Positions 4,670-19,674 of a DNA stretch of 24,000 nt are shown here, piece after piece. Each line of letters begins with the position of its first letter. Within the stretch, counting starts at the first letter, position 1. A program made the translations under genes and the position numbers. The DNA is from Thermococcus sp. JdFR-02 (GTDB lineage Archaea; Methanobacteriota_B; Thermococci; Thermococcales; Thermococcaceae). The stretch is from contig MTLP01000042.1 in NCBI GenBank assembly GCA_002009975.1, forward strand, positions 292,418 through 316,417, written 5' to 3'. The notes beneath the pieces are model-generated. The model searched no databases. It was not told the origin of the DNA and was given only the letters and a program-made list of their open reading frames with translations.

Positions 4670-7336
4670 TCATGCGAAGAACAAAATTACAACATCCTTT
4701 ACAACAGCAGTCTCAACTTCCTCTCCTTCGCTGAATACGGCTTTTCTTATGACGATATCCTCTTTGCTAAGCTCGACTTTTTGTCCCTCTATTTCAAACT
4801 CAACTTTGCCTTTTTCTTTAAGCTTTCTTGAGACTTCTTTAGCATTCTCTTTTAGATAAGCGGTTATCTTTGGAACTAGCTTACCATATTTAGGTCCAAC
4901 ACTCTTAAAGTTTGGCTTAATCTCAGTGATTCTCTCCTCCAATGCTGGTTCTCCTTTGATTATCTCAAGCTTTTCGATATTCATAGTTCCAGCAATGTCT
5001 TTTTCAATTTGCTTGAGCGTATCATAGCTATCTAAAGCATAAACTGCAACATGTTTAAGCTTTGCATTTAATGACAAGCCATGCGAATTCTTATAACGCC
5101 TCATTGCTCCTATTATCTCGCTTGCTAATTCTCCAATTTTTTCTGCTTCTTCATCAACCCTCTCTTCCTTGTATTCGGGCCAGCTTAAGAGATGAATGCT
5201 TTTGGCTTTTACTTTTTCCTTAAAGAGTCCTTGATACAGTTCTTCTGTGATGTGAGGAGCAATTGGAGCTAAAAGCAACAGTACATTGTAGAGCAACTCA
5301 TAAAGGGCTACTTTAGCTTTAAGTTTGCTTTCCTCGTCATTTCCATATAAGCGGTGCTTAATCATCTCAAGGTATTCATCAGCGACTTCATGCCATACGA
5401 ACGTCATTAGCTCTCTTGTGAAGAGGTTGAAGCGATAGTTCTCCAATTCACTGGTTGCAAATTTGATCAAACGGTGAAGCCTTGAGAGAATCCACTTATC
5501 GAGAGGTTCAAGCTCAATGTTCTTGTGTTGCTCATAATCAAAACCTTTTATGTGCCTTTCAGCGAATCTAAAGATATTCCACAGCTTTTGTAAGAACCTA
5601 TAGTTGTAATCAACTGTTTCCCACTTAAATGGATGGTCTTCTCCGGGTGGTGCTAAAGCTGTCCAAATCCTCAAAGCATCGGCACCATATTTTGGAATAA
5701 CTTCCTCTGGAGAGACTACATTTCCATAACTTTTACTCATCTTTCTTCCATCTGGTCCAGCAACCATTCCATTTATTAAGATATCATGCCATGGCTTTTC
5801 TCCCGTTAAGATGTAAGTCCTAAAGATTGTATAGAATGCCCATGTTCTAATGATGTCAGTTCCTTGTGGTCTCAAGTTGTTGGGGAAGTTTATGCTAAAC
5901 CACTTCTCATCTTTGCCCCATTTTGAAATTGCCAAAGGAGTTATTGATGAGTCAATCCAACAGTCTAAGACGTCTTTAACTCCCTCAATGTTAGTCGAAC
6001 CACATTTTGGACATTTATCTACAGGCGGCTTATCAAATCTTGGATCTACAGGCAAATCTTCCTCTCTTGCTGGGATTATCTCACCACAATCTTTACATAC
6101 CCAGAATGGGAGTGGTGTTCCAAACACTCTTTGTCTACTTATAACCCAGTCCCAATCCATACTATCTGCCCAATCCTTGAGTCTTAGGAACATATCTTCA
6201 GGATACCACTTGATTTGCTTGGAAACTTCAACTACCTCTTGGGTGTAATCCTTAACTCTAATAAACCACTGCTTCTTAGGTAAAAGTTCAATTGGAGCCA
6301 TACATGAGCTTCTCTCTGTATGCCTTAGTACTCTGTGATGAACTTTCTTCTTTTCATAAAGTAGCCCCATTTCTTCTAAGTCCTTTGCAATAGCCTCTTT
6401 AGCTTCTTGTGCTGTCATTCCCTTGTATTTTCCTGCTACCTCTGTCATTCTTCCCCTTTCATCAATTGCAATAATTACTGGCAAATTATAGCGCTTTTGC
6501 CATATGATATCCTGCTCATCACCATAGGTACAATTATAAACCGCGCCAGTTCCAAAGGATGGATCAACATCTTCATCTGCTAAAATTGGGACTTCCCTCT
6601 CAAATATTGGAAGCTTAACTTTTTTACCAACTAAATGCTTATATCTTTCATCTTCGGGATGAACAAACACCGCTACACAAGCTGGCATAAGCTCTGGTCT
6701 TGTCGTGGCAATTGGAACAAACCCCTCTTCATCTGCTAATGGGAGCTTTATGTAGTATAGATAGCCATCTTCTTCAACGTAGCCTACCTCAGCTTTTGCC
6801 AAAGAAGTCCTACATTTTGGACACCAGAATACTGGATGCTTGTCTTGATAAAGCATATCTTTCTTGTAAAACTCCAAGAGCGTTTTTTGAACCAACGCTT
6901 TATACTCATCATCCATTGTATGATACTCTAAATCCCAATCAGCTGAATAACCAATTCTAATAAATTGATTTCTCATTTTTTCAATTGCTTCCCATGTCCA
7001 CTCTATACACTTTTGCAAGAATAATTCAGGCTGATCTTTGCTTATTCCAAATTCCTTCTCTACTTTAAGCTCCGTTGGTAATCCATGATTGTCAAAACCC
7101 TGGGGAAACATTACATTAAATCCCCTCATTCTCCTGTATCTTGCAACGATATCAATCCATGTGTGGCTTAAAACGTGCCCTAAATGCAGAGTTCCGGATG
7201 TAAATGGTGGCGGTGTGTCAATAGAATAGTTTGGTCTTCTTTCATCTGGTTCATACTTGTAAATCTTCTCATCGAGCCAGAATTTTTGCCACTTTGGTTC
7301 AATTTCATTTGGATCATAATTCTTAGGTAGTGCCAT
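4670..7336 (-). CDS. valS: valyl-tRNA synthetase
   Basis: 888-aa ORF. Class I HIGH-type motif (PPPFTSGTLHLGHVLSH) and KMSKS (GRKMSKSYGN). The N-terminus NYDPNEIEPKWQKFW and the overall length are typical of archaeal ValRS. SD GGAGGT 6 nt upstream of ATG 7336. Confidence 0.95.
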   Translation of the reverse strand: MALPKNYDPNEIEPKWQKFWLDEKIYKYEPDERRPNYSIDTPPPFTSGTLHLGHVLSHTWIDIVARYRRMRGFNVMFPQGFDNHGLPTELKVEKEFGISKDQPELFLQKCIEWTWEAIEKMRNQFIRIGYSADWDLEYHTMDDEYKALVQKTLLEFYKKDMLYQDKHPVFWCPKCRTSLAKAEVGYVEEDGYLYYIKLPLADEEGFVPIATTRPELMPACVAVFVHPEDERYKHLVGKKVKLPIFEREVPILADEDVDPSFGTGAVYNCTYGDEQDIIWQKRYNLPVIIAIDERGRMTEVAGKYKGMTAQEAKEAIAKDLEEMGLLYEKKKVHHRVLRHTERSSCMAPIELLPKKQWFIRVKDYTQEVVEVSKQIKWYPEDMFLRLKDWADSMDWDWVISRQRVFGTPLPFWVCKDCGEIIPAREEDLPVDPRFDKPPVDKCPKCGSTNIEGVKDVLDCWIDSSITPLAISKWGKDEKWFSINFPNNLRPQGTDIIRTWAFYTIFRTYILTGEKPWHDILINGMVAGPDGRKMSKSYGNVVSPEEVIPKYGADALRIWTALAPPGEDHPFKWETVDYNYRFLQKLWNIFRFAERHIKGFDYEQHKNIELEPLDKWILSRLHRLIKFATSELENYRFNLFTRELMTFVWHEVADEYLEMIKHRLYGNDEESKLKAKVALYELLYNVLLLLAPIAPHITEELYQGLFKEKVKAKSIHLLSWPEYKEERVDEEAEKIGELASEIIGAMRRYKNSHGLSLNAKLKHVAVYALDSYDTLKQIEKDIAGTMNIEKLEIIKGEPALEERITEIKPNFKSVGPKYGKLVPKITAYLKENAKEVSRKLKEKGKVEFEIEGQKVELSKEDIVIRKAVFSEGEEVETAVVKDVVILFFA

Positions 7337-14895: not shown

Positions 14896-16116
14896 ATGAT
14901 TTTACAAGTCGCTTTAGATTTAACAGACATTGAAGAGGCTATTTCTATTGCTGAAAAAGCCGCTCGTGGTGGCGCTCATTGGCTCGAAGTAGGAACACCT
15001 TTAATTAAAAAAGAAGGCATGAGAGCAGTTGAGCTCATGAAGAGAAGATTCCCAGATAGAAAAATCGTTGCAGATCTAAAGACTATGGACACTGGAGCTC
15101 TAGAAGTTGAAATGGCTGCAAGACATGGTGCAGATGTTGTGTCAATTCTCGGTGTTGCAGATGATAAAACAATAAAAGATGCAGTTGCAGTTGCAAAAAA
15201 ATATGGAATCAAGATTATGGTGGATTTAATCGGTGTTAAGAATAAGGTAGAGAGAGCAAAGCAACTTGAAAAAATGGGAGTTCACTATATTTTAGTTCAC
15301 ACTGGAATAGACGAACAAGCTCAAGGTAAAAATCCTCTTGAGGATTTAGAAAAAGTTGTTAAGGCTGTTAAAATTCCAGTTGCAGTTGCTGGGGGATTAA
15401 ATTTAGAGACAATCCCTAAAGTAATTGATCTTGGAGCTACGATTATAATCGTCGGAGGAGCAATTACAAAATCAAAAAATCCTCAAGAGATTACAAGGAA
15501 GATTCTAGACTTATTCTGGGAGGAATATATGTTGACCATAAGAAAAGCTATGCATGACATAACAGACCATATAGATCACGTAGCTGATGCTTTAAGGCTC
15601 GATGAAGTTAGAGGAATGGTAGATGCCATGATTGGAGCAAATAAAGTATTCATCTATGGTGCTGGAAGGAGTGGATTGGTCGGTAAAGCCTTTGCTATGC
15701 GTTTAATGCACCTCGACTTTAATGTCTATGTAGTTGGCGAGACAATTACACCTGCCTTTGAACCTGGAGATTTGCTAATTGCAATTAGTGGTAGTGGTGA
15801 AACAAGAACTATAGTAGATGCTGCTGAAATTGCAAGGAAGCAAGGGGGAAAAGTTGTTGCAATAACATCTTATAAAAATTCAACCTTAGGAAAATTAGCT
15901 GATGTCGTTGTAGAGATACCTGGAAGGGCAAAAACAGATATTCCAACGGATTATATAGCAAGGCAGATGATAACACAATATAAGTGGACTGCTCCAATGG
16001 GGACGTTGTTTGAAGACTCAACAATGGTCTTTTTAGACGGTATAATAGCCCTATTGATGGCAACATTTCAGAAGACCGAAAAAGATATGAAGAGGAAGCA
16101 TGCGACATTAGAATAG
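14896..16116 (+). CDS. hps-phi: bifunctional 3-hexulose-6-phosphate synthase / 6-phospho-3-hexuloisomerase (Hps-Phi fusion, RuMP pathway)
   Basis: The N-terminal half has the OMPDC-like Hps pattern (MILQVALDL..ADLKTMDTG..LVHTGIDEQ..VAGG). The C-terminal half is a SIS-domain Phi (VFIYGAGRSGLVGKAFAMRLMHL..AISGSGET). The 406-aa fusion is characteristic of Thermococcales. Confidence 0.92.
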   Translation: MILQVALDLTDIEEAISIAEKAARGGAHWLEVGTPLIKKEGMRAVELMKRRFPDRKIVADLKTMDTGALEVEMAARHGADVVSILGVADDKTIKDAVAVAKKYGIKIMVDLIGVKNKVERAKQLEKMGVHYILVHTGIDEQAQGKNPLEDLEKVVKAVKIPVAVAGGLNLETIPKVIDLGATIIIVGGAITKSKNPQEITRKILDLFWEEYMLTIRKAMHDITDHIDHVADALRLDEVRGMVDAMIGANKVFIYGAGRSGLVGKAFAMRLMHLDFNVYVVGETITPAFEPGDLLIAISGSGETRTIVDAAEIARKQGGKVVAITSYKNSTLGKLADVVVEIPGRAKTDIPTDYIARQMITQYKWTAPMGTLFEDSTMVFLDGIIALLMATFQKTEKDMKRKHATLE

Positions 16117-16125
16117 GGGATTCGG

Positions 16126-16890
16126 ATGGAAGATTTCCTTCATTTTAATCATCTTTTTGTGGGAATAGGTAACAACGGTTCTCGTATCGTTAAGAATCTG
16201 AATATTAAGAATGCTGGGAGAGTTGTAGTCGATCCAGCAGATTACATCCTAAATAGAAAGGAGCTTATTAGAGATATAAAGGAATTTTTTGGAAAATTAG
16301 ATGACAACACAATAGCTTGGTTTTTGTTTGAGAACAAGCCCATCAATATAGAAATCTCGAAGCAAATTAATTATTATACCCCAAGCAAGGTAATTAGACT
16401 GGCGTATGTTCTAACTCCACATACCGAGCTTGTTGAAATGAATAAGCCAGAATGGGCAGATATGTTTGAAACCGTATTTTATGATTCCCTCAGAGAGCTT
16501 TTGAAAGAATATCAAGAGATACCCTTAAAAGATGCCTTTGAAATGGCGAGCAGATATATAGGTGGAATGTTCTCCAAGCTTTACTATTATCTTGAAAATG
16601 ACATGCTCATCAATGTTGATTATGCTGATCTGTTTGCTATGATAAAAGGAAGAAATGTTGGGATATTAAGGATACTTAATAAAGTTGATTTTGATTGGAA
16701 CTGGGGAATTTGGGAGAGAGGTCTCATAAACATTAGAGCTGGAAGACGCGTTCCATTAAGCAAAGCCCATTTAATTCTCAATAGATTTCAAGATCTTTTA
16801 AGCAAAAAGGATATCATATGGGGAGTTCAGATAGATGAGGAAGTCGAGAAGGATATCGAAATATTAGCGCTTTTAGTTAAGAGGTGGTGA
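16126..16890 (+). CDS. degenerate FtsZ/tubulin-superfamily protein (GTP-binding loops lost, T7 loop and C-terminal domain retained)
   Basis: 254 aa. [12 protein letters not shown] aligns with FtsZ T1 (VVGCGGAGNN). [23 protein letters not shown] aligns with [47 protein letters not shown] aligns with ATIIWGATIDENLENTVRVLLVITGV (M. jannaschii FtsZ, from memory). The T4 signature GGGTGTG position reads [19 protein letters not shown] upstream. Confidence 0.65.
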   Translation: [254 protein letters not shown]

Positions 16891-16891
16891 A

Positions 16892-17536
16892 ATGAGAGCA
16901 ATATTTTTTGACATAGATGAGACTCTCTTGAGTGAGAGACCTTTAATCATGCTATTTTTGCCTCAAGTTTACACAGAACTTTCAAAAAGATTGGGAATAC
17001 CTAAGGATAGCGCTAGATTGAAATTTTTAAAAGAACTCATGGAGCGCAGGAATACTTATGAATGGCATGACTGGAACTTCTTCTTTGAACTTTTTGGAAT
17101 TGATATTAGGTATGAAAACTTACTAAAAGCGTATCCCCACAAACTTCATGTATTTCCAGACGTTAAGCCAACACTAAAGTGGCTTAAAGAAGAAGGATAT
17201 AAGCTCGGTATAATAACAAGTGGTCCAGAATATCAAAGGTTAAAACTTAGATTAACGAAACTCGATAAATATTTTGATATCATAGTAACAAGGGAAGATG
17301 TAAAAACTGTGAAGCCAGATCCCCTAATATTCCTCTACGCATGTCAAAGAATAGGGGTTGAACCACAGGAAACTGTCATGATCGGAGATAATCTGCAACA
17401 AGACGTTTTGGGAGCAAAGAACTCCGGAATGATAGGCGTGTGGATAAATAGAAATGGAGATGAAGATTATCACTTTGCTGATTATGAGATAAAAACCCTT
17501 TATGAGCTAAGAAAGATTTTAGGTGGTGCAAAATGA
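16892..17536 (+). CDS. HAD-superfamily phosphatase (subfamily IA-like)
   Basis: Motif I FFDIDETLL (DxDxT), motif II IITSG, motif III KPDP, motif IV GDNLQQDVLGAKNSGM. The start lies 1 nt after the upstream stop, with SD GAGGTGGTGA. Confidence 0.85.
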   Translation: MRAIFFDIDETLLSERPLIMLFLPQVYTELSKRLGIPKDSARLKFLKELMERRNTYEWHDWNFFFELFGIDIRYENLLKAYPHKLHVFPDVKPTLKWLKEEGYKLGIITSGPEYQRLKLRLTKLDKYFDIIVTREDVKTVKPDPLIFLYACQRIGVEPQETVMIGDNLQQDVLGAKNSGMIGVWINRNGDEDYHFADYEIKTLYELRKILGGAK

Positions 17537-17712
17537 AGGAGATATACAAAAACGAGGGGATTTTCTATGAATATAAGAAGGAAAAAGTAAAGCTTGAAAA
17601 TGGAGATGAAATTATCCATAAGCAAGAGAGACCTACAAAGCTTTGGTGGGAACTTAAAGAAGCTATAAAAGGCAAAAAAGTTAAAATAATCGTCTATGAA
17701 CTTGGAGAATGA
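17533..17712 (+). CDS. small hypothetical protein, 59 aa (one residue under the ORF-track cutoff)
   Basis: Hand-translated: MKEIYKNEGIFYEYKKEKVKLENGDEIIHKQERPTKLWWELKEAIKGKKVKIIVYELGE. Its ATG overlaps the HAD stop (ATGA, 17533-17536) and an SD-like GGTGGTG lies 5 nt upstream. It fills an otherwise unexplained 190-nt gap. Confidence 0.45.
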   Translation: MKEIYKNEGIFYEYKKEKVKLENGDEIIHKQERPTKLWWELKEAIKGKKVKIIVYELGE

Positions 17713-17728
17713 CCTTTCTGGTGATTCC

Positions 17729-18190
17729 ATGAAAGTAGTCTATGAGAAAGAAATCGATGCAAGTAAGATAGTGGTATCACCGAGACCAGTTTGGAAGTGT
17801 AAGGCTTGTCCAATGTATGGCAAAAATCCCTCTTGTCCACCTTATGCTCCACCTTGGCAAGAAGCTAAAGAATGGATCAGGAATTTTAAAAGGGCTTTGG
17901 TAATAAAGTTTGAAGTTGATTATGAGAACTTTGAAACGGAAAAGAGAAAGGCTCTTTTATACCTATTAAGAAAGGAAGAAGAACTATTTAGGAATGGAAA
18001 TTTCTATGCATTCGCTCTTTTTCCTGGAAACTGCAATCTCTGTGAAGAGTGTGAGTTTCAAAAAAGTAAAAAATGCGTAGAGCCAACAAAAGTTAGGTTT
18101 TCTTTATGTGCTGTTGGAATTGAAATAAAGTCATTTGCTAAGGTAAATTTTAGCGAAAGCGTTTTGTATGGGATAATACTCATTGATTAA
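17729..18190 (+). CDS. DUF2284-type predicted metal-binding (Cys-rich) protein
   Basis: CKACPMYGKNPSCPPYAP and CNLCEECEF..KKCVEP..RFSLCAVGIE match the conserved Cys pattern I recall for DUF2284. The likely start is ATG 17729 (MKVVYEK) with SD GGTGA 4 nt upstream. The track start 17696 overlaps the small ORF. Confidence 0.7.
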   Translation: MKVVYEKEIDASKIVVSPRPVWKCKACPMYGKNPSCPPYAPPWQEAKEWIRNFKRALVIKFEVDYENFETEKRKALLYLLRKEEELFRNGNFYAFALFPGNCNLCEECEFQKSKKCVEPTKVRFSLCAVGIEIKSFAKVNFSESVLYGIILID

Positions 18191-18202
18191 AGAGATGATG
18201 TT

Positions 18203-18673
18203 ATGAAAGCGTACATAACCATGCTTGGTCGCTCAACATGGGCAATGATTAATGCGTATTATGCAATTGTAATGCACAAAAAATATCGTCCAGATGAAAT
18301 ATACATCTTTTTAGAGAATATTTACATTAACAAGCTTCCAAAGGCTATTGAGGCTTTAAAAATAATCTCTAGAGCTTTTGGATTTGAGCCGAGAATAAGC
18401 TATGAAATAATTGAAGAAGCAAACTTTCTAGAGGCTGATAAAAAGATTGGAGACCTTTTAAAAGAGCTTAAGGAAAAAGGTTATGAGATAACGATTGAAA
18501 TAACCTCCGGAAGGAAAGCGTTAGTTGCAGGGGCTTTAATACACGGTGTTCCATTAAAAGTCAATCACGTTTTTTATTTAGCAATAAAAAATCTTGAATT
18601 TGCAAACAGACCTTACATGATGATTCCCTTACAGATACAAAAGCTAAAAGATTTCATGGAGGGAAAAGATTGA
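18203..18673 (+). CDS. stand-alone CARF-like (Csa3 N-terminal domain-like) Rossmann-fold protein, 156 aa
   Basis: MKAYITMLGRSTWAMINAYY.. (beta1-LGxST loop), ..EPRISYEIIE.., ..ITIEITSGRKALVAGALIHG (beta4-[DE]xTxGxK loop). These are co-linear with Sulfolobus Csa3 residues 1-120 from memory. No wHTH or effector domain follows. Confidence 0.55.
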   Translation: MKAYITMLGRSTWAMINAYYAIVMHKKYRPDEIYIFLENIYINKLPKAIEALKIISRAFGFEPRISYEIIEEANFLEADKKIGDLLKELKEKGYEITIEITSGRKALVAGALIHGVPLKVNHVFYLAIKNLEFANRPYMMIPLQIQKLKDFMEGKD

Positions 18674-19674
18674 AAGAAGAAATAATATCAAAGCCCGAGT
18701 TGCAACTCCTAATCAATCTCCTTCAAAGAAGTGAACTTAACGTTAGTTATCCTCTTTATGGCAATTTTCCCCTTCTAAAAGCTTGGGTAGAAGATGATGG
18801 CTACAAAATCAAAGTTTTAGCCAATGAAGGGGATTTTTCAAGAGTTCTAAGAGATAAGAGGGAATACATATATGATCTTCCAACATATAGAGATTTTCAC
18901 GAATGCTTCTTAGCAGCAGGGATTTTGCAATATGCTAATATCGATGAGTTCTTAGAGCGCTTGGAAGGGTATAAATCTTTAACAAAGGGGATTATCTTTG
19001 CTCCAGATACAAATTTACTCTATCATGCTTTCATATCCAATTTTAAACCCTTAAAGGGTTATGAAATCGTCATTGTTGATACTGTTAAAAAAGAAATTGA
19101 GAATGCCATGAACTTTAAATATAAGCCAAGTCAATTAAAAGAGCTAAGGAGAATACTGCACAATTATGAACTTTTAAATGAATTCAGCAATAGGAGAATG
19201 AAAAAATCGAGAAAAGCTGCTTATATAGCCTTGAGAGAATTTGAAAAACTAAAGAGTAGATCGATTGAGGTAGAAAGTATAAAAGAAGAGACCCACACTA
19301 ACGACGAGCTAATAGTAAAGACATTAAAAAAGTTTGACAAAGATACACCTACTTTGACTGTTCTCTTGACAGCAGATATAGTCATGACGGATATAGCCAA
19401 GCTTGAAGGTATCGAGTATTTTCTTTTTGAATATCCTCATAAAAAGCTCGATGAACTTTTTGCAACTCCTTATCAACTTCGTTCGCTGCTTTTTAACCTC
19501 GCAACTGTATTTGGCGTAGTTGAGGTGAATAAAGTTTTGATTTTTGGAGAATTTGGAGGGAAAGTTAAACTTAATGAACTAAAATTAAGGTTTCACAGAG
19601 GAGGGCTTTATGAAGAACATAAGTTCCACTTAAACATATGCAGAGAAATAATAAAATTAGGAATAGAAAGATGA
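18670..19674 (+). CDS. multidomain PIN-domain nuclease, 334 aa
   Basis: PIN acidic tetrad in canonical order: D113 (IIFAPDTNLL), E142 (VKKEIEN), D212 (HTNDELIVKTL), D236 (VLLTADIVMTDIAKLEGIEY). The TTG start overlaps the upstream TGA (TTGA), with SD GGAGGG 8 nt upstream. There is no in-frame ATG until residue 147. Confidence 0.6.
   Translation: MKEEIISKPELQLLINLLQRSELNVSYPLYGNFPLLKAWVEDDGYKIKVLANEGDFSRVLRDKREYIYDLPTYRDFHECFLAAGILQYANIDEFLERLEGYKSLTKGIIFAPDTNLLYHAFISNFKPLKGYEIVIVDTVKKEIENAMNFKYKPSQLKELRRILHNYELLNEFSNRRMKKSRKAAYIALREFEKLKSRSIEVESIKEETHTNDELIVKTLKKFDKDTPTLTVLLTADIVMTDIAKLEGIEYFLFEYPHKKLDELFATPYQLRSLLFNLATVFGVVEVNKVLIFGEFGGKVKLNELKLRFHRGGLYEEHKFHLNICREIIKLGIER

Follow-up and report, generated by a model that had tools for sequence, protein, structure and literature searches.

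A 24,000-nucleotide (nt) stretch of DNA from Thermococcus sp. JdFR-02 (contig MTLP01000042.1, positions 292,418 to 316,417), here called the window in its full length and used for all coordinates of its open reading frames (ORFs), raises the question of what a stand-alone CARF protein and a PIN nuclease do together outside any visible CRISPR-Cas locus. The two proteins are encoded by the overlapping genes ORF1 and ORF2. An earlier note on this DNA described ORF1 as a Csa3-like CARF protein and offered two readings of the pair, a split sensor-effector system and a toxin-antitoxin-like couple. The analysis described here shows that it is a correctly read new member of the catalogued, experimentally untouched Crf6 family and neither Csa3 nor VapBC. 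The two proteins are probably the subunits of a ligand-gated CARF-PIN ribonuclease (RNase) of this family (legacy name CARF_m1) in its split form. New here are the split form as the rule, the assignment of the ligand pocket, the structural match to SiRe_0806 of Sulfolobus islandicus, and a recurrent phosphoesterase partner.

The PADLOC profiles, taken over from Makarova et al. (2020), place ORF1 in this family. The protein matches PDLC01971 (CARF_m1--CARF) with an E value of 1e-74, residues 1 to 155 aligning with positions 1 to 154 of 156, and the next CARF model outside the m1 group is 67 orders of magnitude weaker. ORF1 also matches positions 1 to 146 of the fused model PDLC01973 (CARF_m1--CARF_PIN; 465 positions; E = 8.4e-27), and ORF2 matches positions 225 to 442 of the same model (E = 2.6e-16). 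Together, the proteins span the fusion profile as two overlapping genes, with ORF1 a full-length match to the stand-alone profile. The window pair shows no difference in kind from the family, renamed Crf6 in PMC12669027, and represents its split form, which is the commoner one.

The AlphaFold model of ORF1 (predicted local distance difference test [pLDDT], 91.1) has strands at residues 2-8, 32-38, 64-70, 95-99, 122-128, and 146-150 with helices alternating between them. This is the six-stranded Rossmann-like core of the CARF superfamily, in which strands 5 and 6 form a hairpin (PMC4012209). The top 42 PDB matches of a Foldseek search are all CARF proteins and include Csm6, Cam1, Csa3, Can2, Cad1, Crn1, Card1, and SiRe_0806. 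The peptides MKAYITMLGRSTWA, PRISYEIIE, and IEITSGRKALVAGALIHG, quoted earlier in comparison with Csa3, are all present in ORF1, and the CARF fold shared with Csa3 stands (6wxq and 2wte, E values of ~1e-5); the Csa3 identity does not. Csa3 is a transcription factor of type I-A loci with a CARF and a winged helix-turn-helix (wHTH) domain. ORF1 is not Csa3, because it has no wHTH domain, ending at residue 156 just after the CARF core, and scores under both curated cut-offs (Pfam Csa3_N, E = 5.4e-5 and 23.6 bits against 27; TIGR01884, 18.2 bits against 60.2). It has no type I-A gene neighbors, and Csa3 is absent from its phmmer matches against PDB sequences.

Both ligand-pocket loops are kept in ORF1, as had been proposed. 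CARF domains are marked by a serine or threonine after strand 1 and by [DN]X[ST]XXX[RK] after strand 4, both lining the nucleotide pocket (PMC4012209). In ORF1, S11-T12 follow strand 2-8; after strand 4, the family consensus is D-I-T-S-G-R-K, of which ORF1 has E99 for D/N and keeps T101 and K105. The corresponding pocket motifs of Crf6 are LGRSxWA and [DE]ITSGRKA. Residues G9, R10, S11, W13, T101, and G103 are invariant in 32 ORF1 homologues, and R104 and K105 are almost so. A comparison of eight lineages and three fusions shows no variation at G9, R10, W13, T101, G103, R104, and K105, and S11 is replaced by threonine in T. kodakarensis only. Invariance extends to a third motif, RPYMMIP, within segment 129-145, where the confidence of the monomer model is low; the motif presumably takes on order at an interface. 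The CARF domain of ORF1 has its nucleotide pocket intact, and the conservation of the pocket residues suggests that the protein binds a nucleotide-derived ligand.

What kind of ligand this might be is indicated by motif II. A PDB search with the CARF profile is topped by TALE proteins, a repeat-summation artifact in which no single stretch is significant; the first genuine sequence match is SiRe_0806 (9jxw, E = 0.005). A subprofile of residues 86-156, used after this artifact, matches one PDB family only, the Crn1 ring nuclease Sso2081. The stretch DITsGRKA aligns with LDITGGRKSM of Sso2081 and sets R104/K105 on R105/K106, an exact but short correspondence (E = 0.7). In Sis0455, a homologue of Sso2081, the exchange R105G abolishes binding and cleavage of cyclic tetraadenylate (cA4), K106G abolishes cleavage and weakens binding to 4.1 µM, and S11 touches the phosphates (PMC9638899). 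Because motif II aligns on the two residues needed in Sis0455, the pocket of ORF1 looks like a cA4-type pocket, closest in motif to those of the small Crn1 ring nucleases and possibly self-cleaving. Such a possibility agrees with the curated codes for Crf6, which name sensor, effector, and ring nuclease ("r") (PMC12669027, Table 2). Cleavage of cA4 by ORF1 is a prediction only.

The likeness to Crn1 (Sso2081/Sis0455; CARF_m13, now Crf5) extends to the stand-alone CARF architecture and the similar size of the proteins. Both share the conserved serine of motif I (S11) and the R-K dyad of motif II with its conserved lysine, in DITGGRK of Crn1 and [DE]ITSGRK of Crf6. The clades are different: the best CARF7 model for ORF1 reaches E = 0.0057, and CARF_m13 gives no match in PADLOC. 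Crn1 proteins act alone and are CRISPR linked, whereas ORF1 is the obligate partner of a PIN protein and carries the invariant RPYMMIP motif as a feature of its own.

ORF2 combines a PIN nuclease domain, complete in its acidic tetrad, with two family-specific flanking domains. Its central part matches Pfam PF13638 (PIN_4) with 38.6 bits against a cut-off of 21.9 (E = 1.6e-9; residues 112-249 on positions 3-127 of 132), and its model (pLDDT, 95.8; predicted template-modeling score, 0.93) consists of three parts. The four acids recognized in the earlier note are D113 (19006-19008), E142 (19093-19095), D212 (19303-19305), and D236 (19375-19377); the peptides quoted for them, FAPDTNLL, KKEIEN, TNDELIV, and LLTADIVMTD, are all present. 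All four are invariant in 78 ORF2 homologues, as are T114 and N115. In the model, D113 follows strand 107-112, E142 lies in helix 137-146, D212 opens helix 211-225, and D236 follows strand 228-234, the canonical positions of the alpha/beta/alpha PIN fold as judged from model topology and alignment. ORF2 would be expected to act as a metal-dependent nuclease.

The ~100 N-terminal and ~80 C-terminal residues of ORF2 had been considered unplaceable. They indeed match no Pfam family but form conserved, confidently folded domains of this family. In the N-terminal domain, N16 and N90 are invariant and E10, L11, Q12, P28, and Y30 nearly so. This domain follows the CARF domain in natural fusions and is a candidate adaptor to the CARF subunit. 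The C-terminal domain contains an invariant G293-E294-x-x-G297-K298 loop and, judged from its topology, possibly binds RNA.

A fold search with ORF2 retrieves PIN proteins, the best being a CARF-PIN protein with bound cA4, SiRe_0806 (9jxx; E = 9e-7, TMq 0.55, 347 columns). The PIN domains of an archaeal RuvB-like helicase, 3ix7, SMG6/EST1A, and Rrp44 follow. SiRe_0806 (9jxw apo, 9jxx with cA4), deposited as "PIN domain-containing protein," combines a CARF domain with a cA4-binding pocket and a PIN domain, and it is matched structurally by ORF1 as well. Unlike the window pair, it is a single fused polypeptide, with 13 to 20% identity, and a sequence search with the ORF2 profile misses it. It probably belongs to another CARF+PIN family, since named Crf10/Crf11 (CARF_m3), which are further archaeal families of this composition (PMC12669027). 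CARF-PIN fusions were noted in 2014 (PMC4012209). The statement that no characterized two-gene CARF/PIN module is known holds for the characterization; the architecture itself is catalogued as CARF_m1/Crf6.

The two genes are translationally coupled. The ORF listing bears out the coordinates, strand, and lengths of both, and the sequence bears out their 4-nt overlap (Table 1). A GGAGGG string precedes the TTG codon as described, with a spacer shorter than the 8 nt originally given. TTG is accepted as the start of ORF2 because the N termini of homologues align from residue 1 and a start at the next in-frame methionine, M147, would delete a conserved domain.

Table 1. Features of the CARF-PIN locus and two genes upstream of it (window positions)
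Feature	Position	Strand	Remark
ORF1	18203..18673	+	ATG start, 156 aa; stand-alone CARF protein, probable sensor subunit of the Crf6/CARF_m1 family
CARF motif I, G9-R10-S11-T12	18227..18238	+	Loop after strand 1
CARF motif II, E99-I-T101-S-G103-R104-K105	18497..18517	+	Loop after strand 4
Shine-Dalgarno-like GGAGGG	18658..18663	+	6-nt spacer to the ORF2 TTG; within conserved M-E-G codons of ORF1
TTGA stop/start overlap, 4 nt	18670..18673	+	Read from the sequence; translational coupling
ORF2	18670..19674	+	TTG start, 334 aa; three-domain PIN nuclease
ORF2 residues 1-105, conserved N-terminal alpha/beta domain	18670..18984	+	pLDDT 93-98; no Pfam match
ORF2 residues 106-254, PIN_4-type PIN domain	18985..19431	+	Pfam PF13638
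ORF2 residues 255-334 and stop, conserved C-terminal alpha-beta-beta-beta-alpha domain	19432..19674	+	No Pfam match
HAD-IA hydrolase (TIGR02253 family)	16892..17536	+	NCBIfam TIGR02253, 181.1 bits against a cut-off of 169.75
DUF2284 predicted metal-binding protein	17696..18190	+	Pfam PF10050, E = 5.7e-31; directly upstream of ORF1

The pair is a conserved unit. One genome per species was scanned with the PIN alignment, yielding 80 loci from Thermococci, Archaeoglobi, Methanomicrobia (mostly Methanoculleus), Thermoplasmata, Nitrososphaerota, Bathyarchaeota, two Asgard metagenome-assembled genomes (MAGs), and Thermoproteota; 77 are informative, three being cut at a contig end. With a local CARF hidden Markov model (HMM), the CARF gene is located immediately upstream of the PIN gene and on its strand in 76 of the 77, across eight lineages, as in the window. 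The genes overlap by 4 nt in 40 of the 77 loci and by 1 to 32 nt in 27 more (~67 in all). The string ATGGAGG recurs at the junction in Thermococci and Methanoculleus, and its Shine-Dalgarno-like GGAGG falls in conserved Met-Glu-Gly/Asp codons of the CARF C terminus. The recurrence of CARF-then-PIN adjacency and overlap is far beyond chance. The two proteins also codiverge: their pairwise identities correlate with r = 0.94 over 2,628 pairs, and their mean divergence is equal (52% and 51%).

A profile search of 1.84 billion representative proteins gives 308 CARF_m1 clusters. Among the best 150 of these, 98 are stand-alone (140 to 199 aa) and 8 are long (485 to 531 aa), and in 7 of the 8 long representatives, the CARF domain is followed by a whole ORF2-like region. 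The pair normally occurs as two separate genes, and the full-length fusion is a rare variant. The existence of such fusions beside the split norm gives good support to the view that both products act as a single machine. The CARF and PIN folds, the invariant tetrad, the coconserved adjacency, and the natural fusions all support the split sensor-effector reading of the earlier note.

Several apparent departures from this pattern were rejected. An initial asymmetry of 37 CARF against 177 or more PIN matches, which seemed to make PIN genes often partnerless, reflects the limited sensitivity of a word-seeded search; the local CARF HMM finds the partner in nearly all loci, as given above. The 508-aa "fusion" ORF of locus L041 results from the PIN frame running on upstream through GC-rich DNA; the CARF stop codon is present. 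A recurrent ORF of ~160 aa about 3 kb upstream in Thermococcus loci, weakly CARF-like, was dropped after an unconvincing PADLOC result. The sole informative locus without the CARF gene (L071, with features at 623-1429 and 6149-6934), from the Archaeoglobus MAG GB_MAG2_100, contains a degraded module in which the PIN gene is 5' truncated, starting at about residue 67, and two ORFs are inserted before the HAD gene. A stand-alone CARF3-family gene (PDLC01877, E = 1.4e-92) lies 4.7 kb downstream; CARF3 as a recurrent partner was rejected, since this locus is the only one that has it.

More than 20 named species of Thermococcus and Palaeococcus have the PIN protein, and its DUF2284 and TIP49 neighbors are conserved. 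The organism of the window is Palaeococcus-like: identity to PAP_05730 and PAP_05725 of Palaeococcus pacificus is 82% and 69%, and the P. pacificus locus has the same gene order as the window. T. kodakarensis KOD1 encodes DUF2284, CARF (157 aa), and PIN (326 aa) proteins at ~1.05 Mb (AP006878.1; pair at L083, 7538-8981). Its PIN gene (L083, 8001-8981; BAD85391.1) was originally annotated as "hypothetical protein, conserved, flame shift," apparently because the annotators took the two overlapping genes, CARF and PIN, for a single frameshifted one; in the Crf6 family, such an overlap is the usual condition. Nothing on TK1201-1203 of this species was found in the literature searched.

A third gene recurs beside the pair. 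Only three gene clusters cross lineages, namely, PIN, CARF, and an HAD_2 hydrolase. In a six-frame search, the HAD gene directly follows the PIN gene in 34 of 35 Methanomicrobia and 9 of 12 Archaeoglobi loci (with 2 more within 1.5 kb), one of the two Thermoplasmata loci, and the single Nitrososphaerota and Thermoproteota loci. In a Thermoplasmata MAG without HAD (L033, 6454-7578), a calcineurin-like Metallophos phosphoesterase directly follows PIN instead. HAD and Metallophos proteins represent a recurrent phosphoesterase partner, which had gone unremarked. The HAD hydrolase of the window scores 222 bits on an HMM of the PIN-following HAD genes, and in the Palaeococcus clade this subfamily lies 2.8 kb upstream within the same gene cluster, P. 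pacificus included. It is probably the third component of the module, moved to an upstream position in this clade. The hydrolase may turn over the signal or its products.

The immediate surroundings in the window are those of a housekeeping region, as had been noted. The pair ends a cluster of seven codirectional genes (14896-19674) in the order HPS-PHI fusion, 254-aa protein, HAD hydrolase, 59-aa ORF, DUF2284, CARF, and PIN, with intergenic distances of 9, 1, -4, -17, 12, and -4 nt, and a convergent TIP49 gene abuts its 3' end. The window also carries Trm1, a class I aminoacyl-tRNA synthetase, reverse gyrase, TrmB, Gar1, and TFB; no tRNA genes were found within it. The DUF2284 gene directly precedes the CARF gene in 19 Thermococci loci, overlapping its start in T. 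kodakarensis (L083, 7080-7541), and may be part of the operon of the pair in Thermococcales. The 254-aa protein (16126-16890), encoded between the HPS-PHI fusion and HAD genes and kept in P. pacificus, shows weak FtsZ-like matches only (TIGR00065, E = 7.5e-5; FtsZ_C, E = 0.013) and may be a divergent tubulin/FtsZ-family protein.

Outside Thermococcales, the context changes: it is lineage dependent, with housekeeping genes in Thermococcales and defense genes in some of the other lineages. A CARF-PIN-HAD triad of Geoglobus (L085, JADDUK010000005.1, 1-21017) lies inside a dense defense island with RmuC, HepT/MNT, MazE-VapC, a type I restriction-modification system, an SLFN_AlbA_2 protein, and GmrSD. 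Some Archaeoglobi modules adjoin McrBC, and Asgard loci adjoin a type IIG methylase. Distant haloarchaeal relatives (24 to 27% identity) keep motif II and three of the four PIN acids, with CARF motif I diverged. They are encoded on nonmobilizable megaplasmids next to BREX or UvrD/PD-(D/E)xK genes (L087, 8138-12974, Halobaculum halobium plasmid NZ_CP126160.1; L088, 8138-11508, Halorientalis litorea plasmid), in the order ADP-ribosylglycohydrolase, CARF, and PIN, followed by a metallophosphoesterase in L087. The Prokaryotic Genome Annotation Pipeline (PGAP) names their CARF proteins "CRISPR-associated ring nuclease." No homologues of the module were found in the phage collection searched.

From these observations, a mechanism can be outlined for the pair as a ligand-gated Crf6 ribonuclease. 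ORF1 would dimerize as CARF domains do and bind a phosphate-rich, probably oligoadenylate-like nucleotide at the dimer interface through S11, R104, and K105. Seated on the N-terminal domain of ORF2, it would form a 2:2 complex mimicking the homodimer of a fused CARF-PIN protein, and ligand binding would switch on metal-dependent RNA cleavage at the PIN site. Because its pocket has the residues of the Crn1 ring nucleases, the CARF subunit may also destroy its own ligand and so limit the response in time, and the linked HAD or metallophosphoesterase would clear away the signal or what is formed from it. One species without type III CRISPR-Cas has the module intact, so a Cas10-made cyclic oligoadenylate is probably not the trigger in every host. 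A tentative extension of this mechanism, possible at best, takes Crf6 as a CRISPR-independent, pan-archaeal signaling ribonuclease that responds to a nucleotide of endogenous or infection-derived origin and not to a Cas10 product. This nucleotide could be, for example, a product of RNA decay or RNA damage or the messenger of an unknown synthase, and the phosphoesterase would reset the signal.

Several points weigh against the proposed ribonuclease and its independence from CRISPR. Ligand binding, complex formation, and RNase activity of the pair are all inferred. The motif II alignment with Sso2081 is statistically weak by itself, and the structural match of ORF2 to SiRe_0806 is moderate at the TMq value given above. 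ST0035, the one CARF-PIN protein of another family to have been tested, binds cA4 only weakly and shows no induced RNase activity (PMC6546367). The literature searched contains no experimental study of any Crf6 member and no paper on the activity of SiRe_0806. No HAD gene is linked to the pair in 25 of 27 Thermococci loci or in those of Asgard archaea and Bathyarchaeota, and the window has its HAD gene 2.8 kb away from the pair. Finally, for this pair the independence from cas genes is seen within the window, so that the host may have a distant type III system, and among neighbors of the other loci, a rare cas gene could lie beyond the 25 commonest families listed.

An alternative that is unlikely, though the best placed of the rivals, sees the pair as a housekeeping module of RNA processing or RNA damage rather than of defense, in which the CARF protein senses an endogenous RNA-derived species and the PIN nuclease and phosphoesterase serve turnover or end healing. 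Its candidate ligands would include 2',3'-cyclic-phosphate ends and short linear oligoadenylates, in line with what has been proposed for RtcR, whose divergent CARF domain is a precedent for one outside CRISPR (PMC4012209). Such a role suits the core-like position of the pair in Thermococcales, where it is flanked by DUF2284 and TIP49 and surrounded by tRNA, rRNA, and transcription genes, its retention without Cas10, and the recurrent phosphoesterase. It also suits the beta-CASP/RMMBL RNase-like gene found directly upstream in two loci and nearby in four Archaeoglobi loci. The pocket argues against it by its cA4-like look, keeping the K/R that is mostly missing in RtcR-type CARF domains (PMC4012209), as does the presence of the module in defense islands of Geoglobus and haloarchaea. 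The RNase-like gene itself encodes a metallo-beta-lactamase/RMMBL protein of ~515 aa. The CARF gene comes directly after it in one MAG of Nitrososphaerota (L044, 3928-5481) and one of Thermoproteota (L079, 3945-5492), and it lies 1 to 5 kb upstream in several Archaeoglobi loci (e.g., L028, 2917-4443; L031, 749-2290).

A type III accessory role in trans, in which the pair would respond to cA4 from a Cas10 encoded elsewhere as an effector with or without ring nuclease activity, is improbable despite pocket residues like those of proteins that bind and cleave cA4. Of the solved structures, the closest is that of a CARF-PIN protein crystallized with cA4, the structural neighbors of ORF1 are all type III accessory proteins, and PGAP calls the haloarchaeal relatives ring nucleases. 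Against these points stands T. kodakarensis, a host without a type III system, whose only cas cluster is of types I-A and I-B (PMC3737340) and which keeps an intact pair with conserved pocket residues. The synteny of the pair is genus wide and stable across Thermococcus, unlike that of accessory genes. The window contains neither cas genes nor CRISPR-like arrays, in line with the earlier note, and no CRISPR array was found in 81 loci (~860 kb in total). No cas genes occur within ±8 to 10 kb in four annotated contexts (T. kodakarensis, P. pacificus, Geoglobus, and Methanoculleus), and a PADLOC scan of 134 neighbor-gene representatives shows no cas among the 25 commonest families listed. A type III accessory effector would be encoded in or beside a cas10 locus or depend on one; no cas genes were found near the pair in any of the lineages sampled. 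The curators of Crf6 likewise note its absence of CRISPR linkage (PMC12669027), with which the window pair agrees. One "CRISPR-like" repeat, in Methanoculleus frigidifontis (L062, 9065-11297), is instead a degenerate coding tandem repeat: two arrays of 78- to 81-nt units with 74 to 78% matches and a period that is a multiple of 3 lie 2 to 4 kb downstream of the module.

The toxin-antitoxin reading of the earlier note, a PIN toxin restrained by a CARF antitoxin, is highly improbable: a small upstream gene overlapping a PIN gene is the classic VapBC layout, and some Archaeoglobi, Methanoculleus, and haloarchaeal loci lie among toxin-antitoxin and restriction genes, but ORF2 is a 334-aa three-domain PIN_4 protein and not a PF01850 VapC toxin of ~135 aa, ORF1 has a conserved ligand pocket in place of a DNA-binding antitoxin fold, the two are fused in some genomes, and they occur as one pair per locus with stable synteny and codivergence across eight lineages. 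A real toxin-antitoxin pair is seen by contrast in Archaeoglobus sp. UBA234 (L030, 5303-5993) and Geoglobus sp. UBA235 (L032, ~5340-6004), where a cassette of a MazE/AbrB-type antitoxin (PF04014, E = 2e-8) and a 138-aa VapC (PF01850, E = 7.5e-13) sits between the CARF and PIN genes. It breaks their usual overlap and leaves both flanking genes intact.

The split Crf6 ribonuclease of the window is, taken by itself, one more ordinary member of its family. CARF domains are known almost entirely as receivers of the cyclic oligoadenylates made by Cas10. Crf6, by contrast, ties a cA4-type pocket to an RNase from Thermococcales to Asgard archaea and is unlinked to CRISPR loci. The analysis turns a catalogue entry into a testable case, with a proposed two-subunit complex, named pocket and catalytic residues, a candidate third enzyme, and orthologues in the genetically tractable T. 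kodakarensis. The module may serve RNA housekeeping or CRISPR-independent defense. Its ligand, above all in hosts without Cas10, would point either to oligoadenylate-like signals from a source new for Archaea or to another function of the CARF pocket. If Crf6 indeed signals independently of CRISPR, through a nucleotide not made by Cas10, nucleotide signaling through CARF domains would be older and broader than type III CRISPR immunity.

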